Shown: piece by piece, positions 13,575 through 51,312 of the stretch | How the letters are laid out: every line of letters begins with the position of its first letter | Numbering within the stretch: position 1 is the first letter of the stretch | Assembly: GCF_006345805.1 (NCBI RefSeq) | Contig: NW_021834019.1 | Span: 1 to 51,545 of the forward strand | Direction of reading: 5' to 3' | Length of the DNA: 51,545 nt | Origin: Octopus sinensis | Taxonomy: Eukaryota | Translations under genes and position numbers: made by a program | Notes under the pieces: generated by a model | Database searches by the model: none | Seen by the model: the letters and a program-made list of their open reading frames with translations, nothing else | What the model was told of the DNA's origin: nothing

Positions 13575-14324
13575 TATATTATATATATATATATATATAT
13601 AATATATTACGTATTCTATGTTTGTTGATAAACGATACTTAATCGGCTCGTGAAGAAAACTGTATACAGTATGTTTCCTGCCGTATTTGCAAAATATTCA
13701 TAAAAGTATCCCATATATATATATTATATATATATATATATAATATATCTATATATATATATATAGATATATAATATATATATATTATTATATACACACA
13801 CACAATTCACATCTTCATCGGCACCGAAGGTATGATAGTATTATATAAATATATTTGCATCATACTTCTTACAGATGTAAAGCAGCCCGTAAAGATTCTT
13901 CGAGAACAACTCATTGGTTTTTCAGGTATCTTCGTGCTTTTGTTCATATTATCACGTGATTAACTCTTAACTAACTCCATTTAACTATTTCTAACTGCCG
14001 GCTTCTTATCATCGCTATCTTCTCTTCACCACTCTTAGCTTATCATCGCCACATTAAACCATTAATTACCGCTATGTAACGTCTTAATGCTTCTATGCAA
14101 TACTTTCTTTGTAACACCACAGAATAAATAAAGGCTTAAATTGAGCACACAGGCAAAAGCGCGCGAGCGCGCAAACACGCACACACCCACACACCAACAC
14201 ACACGATTCTCAAAATATATGGGAATAAAGGTTTATGCAATGAACTAGGAGAGCGCATATTAAACTTGTTTTAGTGTTATACAACTTAAAACAGAATCTT
14301 AGCAGAGTAAAAAACATATGAAGT

Positions 14325-15180: not shown

Positions 15181-15467
15181 AGAAAAAAGCAACAAGAATG
15201 GATTAGTTGTTCAGTACAATTGTTCATACGAAGAACAGCTTTATTAAAAGCTGCAAATATTGCAGCAAATACAAATGTCCCGTATTCATCAGCCAAAACA
15301 CATATGAGTTTTCCAACGTTTGGAAACTCATATGTGTTTGGCTGATGAATACGGGACATTTGTATTTGTTGCTGCTTTGCAAATGCAATATTTGCAGCTT
15401 TTATAAAGCTGTTCTTCGTATGAAACAATTGTACTGAACAACTAATCCATTCTTGTTGCTTTTTTCT
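15181..15467. repeat. Near-perfect ~290-bp palindrome
   Basis: Arms are reverse complements with no real spacer (centre about 15317); differences are indels. Confidence 0.95.
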
Positions 15468-15611
15468 GTTTATAATCACCCCACATAATTTATGGTTAAT
15501 ACCATATAGATTTCTGGTGCATCTAAGTTAAGTACCGCATGTGAATCATTGGAACTCACTTGAATCTTAATTGTTTTTACTGAAATATATATATAATGAG
15601 AACAGAAATTA

Positions 15612-16584: not shown

Positions 16585-16603
16585 CACACAGACAACAATA
16601 GAT

Positions 16604-16755
16604 AATATGTATGAAGAAAATTATATCTTTATTTTAGATCATACCTTAAACCCCAATAATTGAATATATATATGTATATGTTAATGCAATTGAAACAATT
16701 GTTGGATTTTTAAGGTGTGATCTAAAATAAAGAAATGATTTTCTTCGTACATATT
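16604..16755. repeat. Imperfect inverted repeat, ~60-nt arms
   Basis: TCTTTATTTTAGATCATACCTTAAA / TTTAAGGTGTGATCTAAAATAAAGA. Confidence 0.9.
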
Positions 16756-17076
16756 TCTAAAAATCCTGCATAAGGATTGTTGGATTTACCTGTAGTACGT
16801 GAGGATTTACCTGAGATTTGTATTCTACATACATTTTCTGGTATCTACTTGTTGGAAATTTAACCTTCTTCCTTTGTACTCAGTGTTTGCTTGACATACA
16901 TATATATATATAACGTCAGGACGTTATATATATATATGTATGTATGTATATATGTATGGCTGAGCAGCACCAGTAACAGTTAAGCTTCGTGCAATGGCCA
17001 TACTCGATAACGAGGGAGCAGCCATAATATATGTATGTATTTATATATAAATATATAAAGCAATATATATATATAT

Positions 17077-33721: not shown

Positions 33722-34381
33722 GATGTATAGATATACAAACTATTATGAAGTTGGACGTGCAGTTCTTATTAAAGGATGGACACAAGTGTGTTTTTTCAAC
33801 AACATTAATTTGAATTAATGGAAAAAACTTAGATATTTATTTATTTCAGTACACAAACACTATTATATATATATATAATATATATATAATATATATATAT
33901 ATATATTCAAATGCATACATAACGCATTGCATGAGTCGAATATAACATTTGTTTCAACGGTGACACACGTAATATATATATATTATATAATATATAATAT
34001 ATTATATATATATATATATATATACGTATTTGCCGTTAGCGTTACAAATAGCCGAAACCATTCTTCCTCATTTCACTACTACCCTCTAAACATTTCTGTG
34101 CACTCATCGTACTGCTAAAGCATTTCAAAAATGTTTCAACGTCCCATAACAACATATAGCTTGACATTCACAACTAGGGTCTAAGATGAAACACAGCTTT
34201 TTTGCCTTTCTTCCACACCATGTATATTACTCAATGGGTTATGTATTAGGTTTGATGGAGTCTGAACAAGTTAAACTGTCAATAAATGTCTTTGTAATTG
34301 TTTTTTTTTTTACTCAATATACTAACAATTCTCATGTCACAATGTTCCAGATGATCCATAATACCCTGCTTGTAAATATTT

Positions 34382-34424
<43 letters not shown>

Positions 34425-34506
34425 TGGCTTCTGCTTCTATAAAGTACATACATATTTGAACAAACACACATGCATTATACTGTAAGTGTATATCTGATAG
34501 CATAAA

Positions 34507-34753
34507 AACCGCATGGGTATATGATAGGCACCTTTGTTTCGGCAGTGCATATTCAGGAAGCAAAAAGCGGTTTTGGTGCATTAAATCTTATGAAAGGCAT
34601 AACTGCACGTATAAAACCCGGATTTATTTAAAAATAAATCCGGGTTTTATACGTGCAGTTATGCCTTTCATAAGATTTAACGCACCAAAACCGTTTTTTG
34701 CTTCCTGAATATGCACTGCCGAAATAAGGGGGCCTATTATATACCCATGCGGT

Positions 34754-34754
<1 letters not shown>
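34507..34754. repeat. Near-perfect 248-bp palindrome
   Basis: 123-nt arms, 2-nt spacer, 6 substitutions by manual alignment. Confidence 0.95.
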
Positions 34755-34786
<32 letters not shown>

Positions 34787-35111
34787 TATATATATATTAT
34801 ATATATATATAATATATATATATGCATATATATATACATATATATATATACATATATATATACATATATAACATATATATATATACATATATATATATAC
34901 ATATATATATACATAGATATATATATACATATATATATATGTATATATATATCTATGTATATATATATATATACATATATATATACATATATTATACATA
35001 TATATATGTAATATATATCTATGTATATACATACATATATACGTACATATATATATATATACATATATATATACACACATATATATATATACATATATAT
35101 AAATACATATA

Positions 35112-35146
<35 letters not shown>

Positions 35147-35200
35147 TCCATGATGGTAAGATCAACAGGGAAAGGACTCCATCTGATGAGAGATAAAATC

Positions 35201-35407
35201 TATTTAATAAACACAATAAATGTTTTCATGTGCTACTATTAGTTTCATCTCATGAGAACATGCTAGACAGTGTTTTTAAGACGCCTGGTGTTCTATCACA
35301 ATCTTCAGGCACTGCCCGACACCAGGCGTGTTAAAAATAGTCTGGCATGCTCTCGTCACATAAAATTAATAGTAGCGCATAAAAACATATGTTGTGTTTA
35401 TTAAATA
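35201..35407. repeat. Imperfect inverted repeat, ~90-nt arms
   Basis: TATTTAATAAACACAA...ACGCCTGGTGT / ACACCAGGCGT...TTGTGTTTATTAAATA. Confidence 0.9.
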
Positions 35408-35732
35408 ATATATATATTATTCACATATATACATACATTACATATCTTTATTTATACACTCAAATTTCTGCATCATTTTTACACCTATCTATACATTTAC
35501 TCATCTACTTGCTTGCTATAAAAGCTTGTTGTAACTGTTCTTGTATTTGTTATTATAGTTAATGTTATTATATTGTTCCTGTTGTTGTTGCCGTTGTTAT
35601 TGTTTGCTAGTGTTGCTGGTTTCGTTTCTGCTATTTTTGTTGTCACTGTCCTTAAGTTTTATAAAATTTAACTTCCCATTCTTGACTCAACACCTATCAT
35701 TTCCCACTCACTGACCTATATGATCCCCGCAG

Positions 35733-35856
35733 GTGTCCCTTTAGGCGTAAGGTCTTCCTGGCCATTTACACTTTAGAGCGCCATCAAACCCTAATCCACA
35801 TCAAATCATTTCATAGTGCAGATTACGGATATTGCGGTAGACTTCTCGCTAAGTAA
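35733..35856 (+). CDS. Candidate alternative exon (120-nt cassette ending at 35852, or terminal exon with stop at 35854-35856)
   Basis: Branch-point-like CACTGAC (35709-35715) and CCCCGCAG acceptor. Only the phase-2 frame is open: (R)CPFRRKVFLAIYTLERHQTLIHIKSFHSADYGYCGRLLAK*. Possible donor AA|GTAACA at 35853, also phase 2. Confidence 0.35.
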
Positions 35857-35865
35857 CACAACACG

Positions 35866-35904
<39 letters not shown>

Positions 35905-36129
35905 AGCATATAACCCTAAGTGCGGATCTTATCGGTGTAAATCGTATTATTTACTTTTTCAAGATGCCACAGTCCACCACGTTGTAAATAAGCTAATAAG
36001 CTACCATATAAAAATAGAAGACTGGTTTGTGGAGTCGTTGTTAAAGTAGGGAATAACAAGCTAAGTACTTCTCATTTTGCTGGCACTGTGATGTGTCCCC
36101 CCTCACAACAGCTCCCTCTCTACAGCAGA

Positions 36130-36460
36130 GACCATACTAAGGTACAGTCTACCTAGTTGTAAGTAGGTACCATTATATACATCACACTAATATACAGTCG
36201 CCTCTAGAGTGAGATACAGTTCACCTAGATATCAATAGATGATATGGAGTACTACAGTGAAACGCAGTTCACCTGGCTGTATGTAGGCACAACAATATAA
36301 CACAATGGTGTATCATCGACTCACATTTAAGTGTGTTTGGTAACAGCAATGTACCACAGTGAGAGAGTCCACGATGCTGTGGCTAGATACCACAGTGCAT
36401 CGTAATGAAATGTGGTCAGTCTACTTAAAAGTAAGCTGGCCACCACACACTGCAAGAGAA
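36130..36460 (+). repeat. Decayed ~48-bp minisatellite, about 6-7 units
   Basis: Recurring CAGTTCACCT.G.TGTA.GTAGG.AC.AC.AT.TAC.ACAGTGA-like unit. Confidence 0.55.
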
Positions 36461-36563: not shown

Positions 36564-36805
36564 ATAAGGAAATGGGATGACAAACAATTGCCTTATCGAC
36601 TTCGATGGCTTACAGGTGTTTCTGCTATAAGACGCAGTGGACTCATAGTTGAGTGCCTGAGTAACACCTTATAGCTTCTTCGCAGCTTAAAATATGAAAT
36701 GCAGTTTATTAGGGAAGAGTCCACCACATCTTATAAGAGAAACAGCTGTAAGCCATGAAGTCTGCAAGATAATTGTTTATTCCTTTGTCATCTTATTTTC
36801 TTTAT
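36564..36805. repeat. Imperfect inverted repeat, ~80-nt arms
   Basis: ATGGCTTACAGGTGTTTCT / AGAAACAGCTGTAAGCCAT and GTGGACTC / GAGTCCAC. Confidence 0.85.
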
Positions 36806-37387
36806 ATATAACAACCATTAGCCAAGAGAAATAACTCAGAGCCACCAGTGGCATGCATATATGGACAACATTAATACAGTTATATCAAATACCACACAAC
36901 ATAAATTCCTGATGAATTAAAATTTTCTCCAACCCTATGAGTTGTGTCAAAATTCTCGAATAACAATTGAAAACAACTCCACATGCGAAAGGGAGATAAT
37001 CTGAAGAATCAATGATTTCCCAAAGTTAATAAGGCCATTAAGGAAAAGGATAGGTTTATTGTCTGGAGATAAGAGGACGCCTATCGATGTAGAAATGCAT
37101 GTCCATGTCTGGCCCCTTATCTTCAGGCAATAAGCATGTCCTTTTCCTTAATGCATGTTAATTTTGGGGAATACTTAAATCAAGAGATTATCTCCCCTTC
37201 TGAAGTGAAGCAGGTCAAGAATTTACGTTGTACGGTACTTGATATACCTGTATTTGTCTATATTGTTCAAATACATATTACAGACAGTTATTTCGCTTCG
37301 CTCATTTTTGTTATACATATATATCAGGCAATAATCTGATGTATGTATATATATCTATATCTATATCTATGTATGTATGTATATATG

Positions 37388-44640: not shown

Positions 44641-45385
44641 TATATATTATATATATATATATACTTGTTTATTCGACCCAGTGTACTCATGTTGATTGTT
44701 ATAGCCACAACGCTTGCCCATTCTCTCCGCCCTCTTCAGATTCCTGTCGAGCTTGTGACAATACATATATAGTAGAGAGAGAGAGACAGACAGAGAGACA
44801 GAGACAGAGAGTTTGTTTTTATGTCAATTCGCTTTTAAATCAATTTTACATTAAACTGAAGGATTACTCAATACTTTTTTTTATTGAAGTACACATTTAT
44901 TAATTTTTGCAAGTAAAGATTGATAGTGACTTCGAACTTTCGGTTTCCTCGCCTTCACTAAACCCTACCTAAATACTTACATTTATGGCAATACTTATAG
45001 CCTACTTAATTTGGGTAAAAGCACTGTACTTTTACAAGAGATGCGAATATTGCAGTAATACGGCGTTCTAACATGTATATCCAAGTTAAGTAGATTATAA
45101 GGATTGAAATTCAGTATTTAACTGCTTCTGTCACGTATGTGTGTGTGTGTGTGTGTGTGTATGAATATAATATATATATATATATACAGAAACGAGAGAA
45201 AAAGTAAGAAATACTAAAAAAGAATGTGATAGCTTATTGAGACTTATCCAGATCTGAGTGAGCCTGTACCTATCTGAGGAGACGTAGGAGGGCGGAGAAA
45301 ATCCAGAATACCAAAACACTGGGTCATATACACGCAGAAGAGCAGAATAAAAGTAGAAATTTGGTTACAATTCTTGTATACAAAT

Positions 45386-45630
45386 ATCATAAGTTACATA
45401 ATATTCAGTTGTGTTTCACTAGTGTATACTAGTATGCTATGCAGTAATCGTTACATAGACGATCGTATAATCAACCTATAATACCAGATTGTCAGCAACG
45501 AAGTAGATTATTTCTTTCTTCTGATGATCTGATGTTATTGGGTCATAATGCTACTGTCTATGTAACGATTACCGTATAGCATACCTGTATATACCAGTGA
45601 AACACATGTAATAATTATGCAATTTATGAT
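45386..45630. repeat. Imperfect inverted repeat (weaker extension to about 45335-45680)
   Basis: TGTGTTTCACT...GTAATCGTTACATAGAC / GTCTATGTAACGATTAC...AGTGAAACACA. Confidence 0.9.
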
Positions 45631-45851
45631 GTTAAAATTTTTATAAATGGAACCGAATCTTCAGTTTAGTCTTCTCTGGGACGTACAAGCTGTAATCTAT
45701 TTAAATGTATTTAATACCAACCAAAAATATAAGGACAAATTAGGTTTAATTTTTGATTCGAAGTTGGATACGCATGATGTTACATAACAACCCGAACCAA
45801 AGGTTAATTGTAATGCAATCATATATAATCAACAGATGTGACTATGCATAT

Positions 45852-46187: not shown

Positions 46188-46515
46188 AAATCTATACAGT
46201 ACAGACAATTTGGACAAAACGAAATCCGACTTGGCCAAAGGTGACCCAAGAGGTAAAGGTTTCAAACAGCAGAAGATCAGTCATTCTCAAGCGAACACAA
46301 ACATGACATTGGCTGATGAACTCGATACAGTCTCTGGTAGTAACGGCTGCGGTAGCAACAGTGTCCAGGAAAGTCCGTTCGTCGACAGTAGTGTCTATGA
46401 CGTTCAGCCCAAAGACGGTTACAAAAGATTCAAAGGCGGTTCAAGCATGGAGAGTTTGTACAGCGACAATGGTGGATCCAGTTTAGACAGGGACACGCCC
46501 ATACATTCTACAAAC
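46188..46515 (+). CDS. Probable cytoplasmic-domain exon of the same cadherin gene
   Basis: Long pyrimidine tract (46070-46160), TTTACAG acceptor at 46181-46187 in phase 2 (matches the donor at 1120: CG+A=Arg). Open frame NLYSTDNLDKTKSDLAKGDPRGKG...SMESLYSDNGGSSLDRDTPIHSTN, strong donor AAC|GTAAGC at 46516. Non-repetitive, higher GC, S/D/G-rich as in cadherin tails. Linkage to the first exon is inferred from phase only. Confidence 0.75.
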
Positions 46516-50313: not shown

Positions 50314-51312
50314 CTAGTTTCAGAGCTGTGGCCATGCTGATGCACCACCGTTTTGCACTACACTCTTATTACTGAGAGCCTCCTCTAATATGTGGTACTT
50401 GGTGAAGAATGGAGTTTGATGTAGCTACCCTCATTTGCACCTCTTGCCGTGAGGTAGGTTCATGTGTGACTCTCGACAGGAAGAGGTCCAGCTTTGATTT
50501 TAAAACATCTACATCTACTTTGTGCAAGTTCCTCACGCTCTTTGGGAGAATATTAAAAAGCTGTGGGCCCCTGAAACTCAGGCTGTTGCAGTAACTGGAC
50601 CTGAAGCGCGATGGCGTTGGTGGGGTCTTTGGCACTATGCAGTGTCGACCCGTTCTAGCATTGGTGTAGCTTTCAATGCCAAAATTTGGCACAATTCCTT
50701 CCAAGATCTTCCAGATATATATTACTGCGTACCTCTCCCGTCTTCTCTCTAGGGAGTAGAGTCTTAGCTGTTTCAACCTTTCCCAGTAGCTGAGCTGTTG
50801 CAAAGAAACGATCTTCTTTGTGAATCTTCTCTGGATTGCTTCAAGGTATGCTGTTAATTTCACACTGGTGGGTGACCATATCTGTGAGCAGTAATCTAGG
50901 CGGCTGAGGACAAATGTCGGCCAGAGGACACTCATGGTTTCCTTATCTCTGGTTCTGAATGTTCTTAGGACCCATCCAGAGCAGTCATCTGCACTTTGTC
51001 GCCATCCTGGTAATGTGCACTTGGAAAGAGGTATCATCACTCATGTCTATACCCAGGTCCCTCACTGATTTAGGCTCTGGGATTGAAATTCTCTGTGGAC
51101 CAGTGGACCCTGTAAGTTTCATATTCAGTTTTGGACGCATTTAGCGCAGGGCTTGGAATTTTTCAGCATTAAATTGCATGTTATTATCCTCAGCCCATCT
51201 GTAAATTGAGTCCAACTCCTGCAGCAGATGTGCAACATTGCTGGGGTTCTGTATTTTCTGCGAGACTTTCGTATCGTCTGCATAGCTTGCAAGGGTGGCT
51301 ATCAGGGCACGT
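50314..51312 (-). mobile_element. 5'-truncated, frameshifted CR1-group non-LTR retrotransposon (RT C-terminal part plus 3' end)
   Basis: ORFs 51141-51326 (YADDTK, WAEDNNMQFNAEKFQ) and 50369-51040 (LDYCSQIWSP, LEAIQRRFTK, YWERLKQLRLYSLERRRERY, RGPQLFNILP). The 3' end CGGTGGTGCATCAGCATGGCCACAGCTCTGAAACTAG runs into a (TCTA)n tract. Confidence 0.9.

Follow-up and report, generated by a model that had tools for sequence, protein, structure and literature searches.

Elements of the Tc1/mariner (ITm) superfamily are marked by a TA target duplication (available text of PMC7325037). Inverted sequence can also be made locally. In yeast, DNA breaks lead to fold-back inversions of 10 to more than 150 bp, closed by end joining with 0–5 bp of microhomology, and the fold-back events described in the accessible part of that study keep a 41-nt loop and are mostly of 5–34 bp (PMC11724301). 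Penelope-like elements of the Naiad and Hydra types target (TA)n and include inverted, 5'-truncated copies with a one-sided tail of 30–40 bp (PMC8557442); Naiad elements lack a hammerhead ribozyme core. As to the fate of such sequences in RNA, the hyper-editing signal of octopus is among the strongest, and the most edited frog repeat is a palindromic transposon of ~200 bp (PMC5625713).

In this report, we describe a 248-nt palindrome in a 51,545-nt stretch of the Octopus sinensis genome (assembly GCF_006345805.1, contig NW_021834019.1, positions 1 to 51,545), hereafter called the window. We consider it rather likely that in this single-copy structure part of an old MITE-like copy has been doubled as its own mirror image, probably by an in-place fold-back at a broken end and probably without effect on fitness. 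Its left arm (34507-34629, + strand, 123 nt) pairs ungapped with the right arm (34632-34754, - strand), which is an inverted copy of the left, around a 2-nt loop, AA, at 34630-34631. The 123 pairs include six mismatches and no indels. Pairing ends abruptly outside both outer ends, and a TA/CA tract of ~390 nt, beginning at 34754 and ending at 35146, abuts the end of the right arm directly. The first-pass annotation had given this geometry and the abutting tract exactly. It had also stated that four of the six substitutions give G-U pairs in + strand RNA, which agrees with the computed pairing: on the + strand, G-T mismatches lie at 34523/34738, 34533/34728, 34536/34725 and 34567/34694, and the other two are A-G at 34530/34731 and A-C at 34580/34681. 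The fold of 34490-34770 has an energy of -212.1 kcal/mol (z = -32.8), a stability reached by none of 200 shuffles, and the + strand folds 13 kcal/mol better than the - strand.

Eight sequencing runs were compared with the locus; pieces of it were found in X3, X5 and X8, whereas the five others, among them X1, X2, X4 and X6, had none, which proves nothing. Run X3 contains a 62-nt contig over 34600-34661 that reaches 31 nt to each side of the loop center with no differences, the size expected from a 31-letter assembly graph at the center of such a palindrome, and a right-arm contig over 34632-34756 with one difference. A contig from run X5 covers 34425-34639 with five differences (three of them in the flank) and extends only 8 nt past the loop. 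Run X8 covers the left flank up to 34520. Because the X3 and X5 contigs come from two other studies, under another species label, the palindrome is not private to this assembly; further, both arm variants are present in those samples.

Although its sequence lies far beyond chance, such a palindrome is not rare for this genome. Our sample, 999,800 bases in all, consists of 100 stretches, each of 10 kb, placed at round coordinates along 25 large scaffolds (it is not formally random and holds no unplaced contigs). It contained 29 palindromes of at least 100 nt, four of which were at least 200 nt long and at least 90% identical; three of these four are cut by the edge of a stretch and hence are longer still. 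This amounts to ~4 long, clean palindromes per Mb (95% interval 1–10), and a stretch of 51 kb would be expected to contain one. The same scan found six palindromes in the window, and a seventh is present at 35146-35415. A general repeat search of the window was swamped by microsatellites. Among the palindromes of the window, four more decayed ones (68–76%) lie in the same intron as the one under study, at 16599-16759, 36582-36778, 36987-37200 and 45383-45633.

The arm belongs to a dispersed repeat. A genome search with one arm returned 25 other matches at 71–86% identity, and a search with an intact family copy returned 271 candidates. The family consensus, built from 29 full-length copies, is 195 nt long and non-coding. 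Its termini are imperfect inverted repeats of ~29 nt that agree at 26 of 29 positions, and two of the three differences come from a pair of columns in which the copies carry C or T and G or A, as CpG decay gives. Of the 29 full-length copies, 24 begin with TA at the 5' end and 21 close with it at the 3' end; this TA may be a target duplication or belong to the repeat itself. Since copies average 83% identity to the consensus, the family is old. Its profile had no match in the 1.0 Mb sampled, and we regard it as a family of modest size, with hundreds to a few thousand copies. Non-autonomous ITm MITEs are likewise short, non-coding and dispersed with terminal inverted repeats and TA ends, and the family would accordingly count as a Tc1/mariner-type MITE, an assignment made by anatomy only because a search for a transposase partner around 30 DDE_1 loci was negative: the terminal repeats had no match within ±1.5 kb of these loci (of 150 scored, from 3257 candidates). 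The termini are reminiscent of those of Tc2/MER104-type elements. We found no publication on the locus or on the family, which may already bear a name in the O. vulgaris repeat library, Repbase or Dfam; the available text of the O. vulgaris repeat paper has no mention of "palindrom" or "hairpin" (PMC13282606). The first-pass annotation had named a match to a described MITE, together with a lack of RNA-level signal, as a sign against its reading; of this pair, the MITE-like origin is now demonstrated.

Two features elsewhere touch on this family. A 589-nt, TA-flanked palindrome (87%) at L013:891-1479 lies directly beside a family copy; its ends resemble what we take to be a mariner-type terminal repeat. 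The copy at 34489-34629 retains several CpG sites that have decayed in many chromosomal copies, which suggests low germline methylation there.

At the locus itself, the left side matches the family from the 5' terminal repeat to about position 140. The left arm is the body of the repeat in its original orientation (profile match E 1e-27 over 34489-34628), and the unpaired 5' end of the copy (34478-34506, + strand) is a remnant of the terminal inverted repeat; the match is clear from 34489, and its probable extension to a TA at 34478, which takes an 8-nt insertion, is a reading by eye. Farther out lie a single-copy flank of 55 nt (34423-34477) and, 84 nt to the left of the palindrome, a (TA)19.5 tract (34384-34422). 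The family match thus reaches ~20–28 nt past the palindrome on the left side only. The right arm is without the parent's 5' terminal repeat, and its profile match sets in only 21 positions after the point at which that of the left arm does. The fold-back point falls at the first T-run of the parent, at about position 140–145 of 195, and the right arm occupies the place expected for the parent's last ~50 nt, which are absent. By this alignment, the arm is the 5' three quarters of an old, TA-flanked MITE-like repeat of ~195 bp. In contrast to an intact ITm MITE, then, the palindrome is a broken and doubled copy of a repeat whose transposase partner was not found among the 30 DDE_1 loci. We also considered, and dropped, the idea that an expansion of TA units has split a surviving 3' terminal repeat of the parent; its first six letters fit as any TA tract would, and the rest does not align.

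Because the parent sequence is known, the palindrome can be dated and polarized. Relative to the consensus, 26 substitutions and a 4-nt insertion are common to both arms, whereas the arms differ from each other at only six sites, with derived letters on both. These 26 shared private changes indicate that an already diverged MITE copy was doubled later. Jukes-Cantor (JC) distances agree with this order (0.05 from arm to arm; 0.26 from the left arm to the consensus), and the MITE copy is 78% identical to the consensus. With a calibration of JC 0.09 to 25 My, taken from the available part of PMC13282606, the fold-back is ~7 My old, with a range of 2.5–15 My that reflects counting error alone; any arm-to-arm correction would push this age further back.

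The palindrome does not appear to have moved as a unit, because no folded-back second copy was seen at any of 55 fetched family loci (~42 distinct places) and because both its center and its left flank are single copy. A 19-mer beside the center had six matches at one mismatch or fewer (control, three), two of them the locus itself and the other four not members of the family, and the left-flank query (34423-34510) matched only itself in the genome. The genome search scores the best candidates only and skips very common words, and these negatives are therefore strong and not exhaustive. The search for dispersed copies that the first-pass annotation had proposed thus gave a divided answer: the parent repeat is dispersed, and close or folded copies of the palindrome were not found. 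Its description of a "young element" does not hold, as the palindrome arose by rearrangement of an old MITE-like copy and exists once only, and both of its arm variants also occur in the samples with another species label.

The locus has the features of a fold-back duplication: inverted resident sequence, private changes in both arms and a parent that continues on one side only. For the in-place reading that we favor, we propose that a DNA break would have occurred at or near the (TA)n tract, by cruciform cleavage or by a TA-targeting endonuclease, followed by resection into the MITE. The exposed end may then have primed on itself at the MITE's T-run and A-run, been copied backward for 123 nt and been joined to the neighboring TA tract with about 1 base of microhomology. 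The break and priming steps are put forward by analogy only, and an unfolded allele or orthologue was not seen. AT/TA repeats reportedly form fragile cruciforms, and in the family an A-run comes after the T-run, the two being directly adjacent in one copy (L009). The yeast fold-back duplications likewise consist of an inverted copy of break-adjacent sequence, folded back at one end and joined with little or no microhomology. The octopus case differs in that it became fixed in the germline, within an intron of an animal, with a loop of 2 nt rather than 41, a (TA)n tract at its far junction, and a break that is postulated. The same kind of accident is found at C7:30007482-30007614 (L039:7482-7614), where a dispersed repeat with 255 candidates has its end folded back; the fold lies at an inverted repeat, small and natural to the sequence. 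It has no TA tract beside it, and the six other listed copies, one of them with the same flank, are unfolded.

The most serious competing explanation, which we nonetheless judge unlikely, is that Penelope-like enzymes, an endonuclease that targets TA and a reverse transcriptase, placed a foreign template in (TA)n and copied it back. The template would, with the same low expectation, have been the 55-nt flank plus the MITE fragment, folded as these elements fold their own truncated ends. The outline of the locus, (TA)19.5, 84 nt, arm, AA, arm and (TA)n, is that of a Penelope-like stub, and because it equals that of such abundant stubs, an insertion made by a retroelement is a live alternative. 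Like the Naiad and Hydra stubs, the palindrome has a tiny loop, a one-sided unpaired tail and (TA)n flanks, as far as the available text describes them (PMC8557442). Most of the clean palindromes that we sampled are Penelope-like stubs with this outline and with variable fold points; the same outline with a loop of 0–2 nt recurs in L162 (twice), in L194 and in the window at 15181-15590 and 35146-35415. Further, 6 of the 29 sampled palindromes end at (TA)5 or longer, compared with 280 of 4927 random intervals (p = 0.005), and a (TA)8 or longer lies within 85 nt upstream at only 9% of window positions.

The sequence, in contrast, does not fit. A stub should be the 3' terminus of some Penelope-like family with many copies, whereas this arm is MITE-derived, the leader is single copy, and its 84 nt exceed the 30–40 bp given in the accessible sections of PMC8557442. 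No donor was found: arm, center and flank are each single copy, and a donor diverged by ~5% should be findable if assembled. Neither Penelope-like sequence nor a hammerhead core was detected in 34423-34754, by Rfam or by a core pattern, which is a weak test given that the pattern also missed four of five comparison stubs. The leader is unstructured (z +1.4), yet so are three of the four comparison tails. We accordingly hold it doubtful that Penelope-like machinery also turns bystander DNA at TA tracts, in this case a dead MITE, into near-perfect hairpins that are each single copy, and we continue to prefer the in-place fold-back.

The stubs themselves deserve description. The one at 15181-15590 of the window comprises a 287-nt palindrome and a one-sided tail of ~120 nt between TA tracts. 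Its family, which has Penelope-stub anatomy and variable fold points, is young and high-copy (1157 candidates, the best copies being 98–99% identical). On the far side of the TA tract that abuts our palindrome, 35146-35415 is an older palindrome-plus-tail with arms ~77% alike (1107 candidates). L162:7731-8359 holds a tandem pair of stubs from a single family, both made up of a leader and a palindrome between TA tracts, that have different fold points. The sample also includes, at L130:1-1084 (G000:C1:100000001 on), a 100% palindrome that is at least 1084 nt long; a frame of 615 aa begins with its right arm. We take this frame to carry RT-like motifs and the locus to be a very recent Penelope-like insertion, a label that rests on motif recognition because a search of the frame against Pfam gave no families.

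A further question is whether the palindrome does anything for the gene in which it lies. That gene, LOC115230626, is on the + strand; its exons end at 1120 and resume at 13875-13925 (51 nt) and at 46188-46515, and the palindrome is within the 32.3-kb intron between the latter two (13926-46187, + strand). A related protein of 732 aa has cadherin domains and joins these two exons directly, from which we take the host gene to encode a cadherin-domain membrane protein. For the "candidate alternative exon" that the first-pass annotation placed ~1 kb downstream, the only fit found is a good acceptor at 35733, with a phase-compatible frame of 40 codons (35733-35860), but this interval belongs to a dispersed repeat with 11 other matches (71–84%), and neither the NCBI gene model nor the relative's protein includes it. 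A Pfam search of four open reading frames of the window returned no families. A frame of 223 aa at 50369-51040 on the - strand, likewise with no Pfam match, resembles the C-terminal part of a LINE protein.

Because the palindrome sits on the sense strand of the intron, a hairpin is predicted in the pre-mRNA if this intron is transcribed, with a duplex of ~120 bp that contains 75 adenosines and is of the long, near-perfect kind expected of an ADAR substrate. The ~120-bp hairpin RNA of the earlier description is therefore well founded as a prediction, given the stable fold and this position. ADAR would likely hyper-edit it in passing, like thousands of others and with no role of its own, as the strength of octopus hyper-editing and the frog palindromic transposon suggest. 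The ~200-bp palindromic Harbinger repeats of Xenopus are likewise transposon-derived, self-folding hairpins that need no partner copy (available portion of PMC5625713). They differ, as do the Made1 repeats, in being palindromic as families, whereas none of the 55 loci of the octopus family is folded. An editing site in an exon could not use the hairpin as its partner strand, because the arms pair with each other. The microRNA mir-548 is said to derive from Made1, a self-folding transposon hairpin of similar size.

We think it improbable that the hairpin is a functional RNA under selection, whether as an ADAR-recruiting or splicing-modulating element or as a small-RNA source for the cadherin gene. 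Its place on the sense strand of an intron of such a gene, its very stable fold (better on the + strand), the octopus and frog editing precedents (PMC5625713, available portion) and the persistence of both arm variants in samples of another species label would all suit a function, but editing alone would not show one. The nearest supported exons are 20.6 kb and 11.4 kb away, the six arm differences include no compensatory change, and the genome carries ~4 such palindromes per Mb. That four of the six mismatches keep a G-U pair would suit a function too, but this count falls within chance (four of five transitions, p = 0.19), since a transition mismatch gives a G-U pair on one strand or the other. 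Over the six window palindromes, G-T exceeds A-C on the sense strand (33 vs 19, p = 0.07), a weak hint of selection on RNA pairing or of strand-biased mutation, which could also give such an excess in a transcribed region. Rfam had no match in the window at the gathering score; below that threshold, 34300-35500 has 55 matches, whose scores reflect hairpins or TA repeats, those to microRNAs being generic long-hairpin scores. No RNA data set is indexed for 33900-36400, and two runs that we guess to be RNA likewise count neither way on expression. X8 has one 220-nt contig, which ends at 34520, 14 nt into the left arm, and carries three T>G letters that equal those of the DNA run X5 and are therefore allelic rather than edited; X10 has another family copy only. 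In all, we found no sign of function for the palindrome, which is probably neutral.

Still less probable, and in our view largely refuted, is that the palindrome belongs to a young, mobile, palindromic MITE subfamily and was inserted as a unit. Its sequence does derive from a MITE-like family, and palindromic, TA-flanked elements such as L013:891-1479 exist in this genome. A mobile unit would, on the other hand, be expected to carry the family's terminal repeats at its ends, and here the left one lies outside the palindrome and the right one is missing; no target duplication surrounds it, and the arm search, the center 19-mer and the 55 family loci produced no second copy. Finally, an assembly or library artefact, a fold-back read on an unplaced contig, is scarcely credible even though the window is an entire unplaced 51.5-kb contig of a 2.72-Gb genome and the largest-share run, X1, has no contig of the locus (a gap that proves nothing because the filter drops contigs), for it is refuted by the independent and exact X3 junction contig, together with the X3 right-arm contig, the X5 left-arm contig that runs through the loop and the distribution of consensus-polarized differences over both arms, all of which uphold the first-pass view that the structure is real.

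The palindrome, then, is real and explained, and it is probably ordinary, because equally good hairpins are common in the octopus genome. Fold-back duplications and transposon-derived hairpins are kinds of structure already known, and one locus among them matters little. By extrapolation from 4 per Mb, there should be on the order of ten thousand palindromes as long and as clean genome-wide. The locus does show that octopus hairpins beside TA tracts are not all the ends of Penelope elements. If Penelope enzymes nevertheless drive such events, a retroelement would be linked to the supply of double-stranded RNA behind octopus hyper-editing. And if bystander DNA is indeed folded in this way, the octopus genome would continually be making new ADAR substrates inside its genes, of which this locus would be a clean example.
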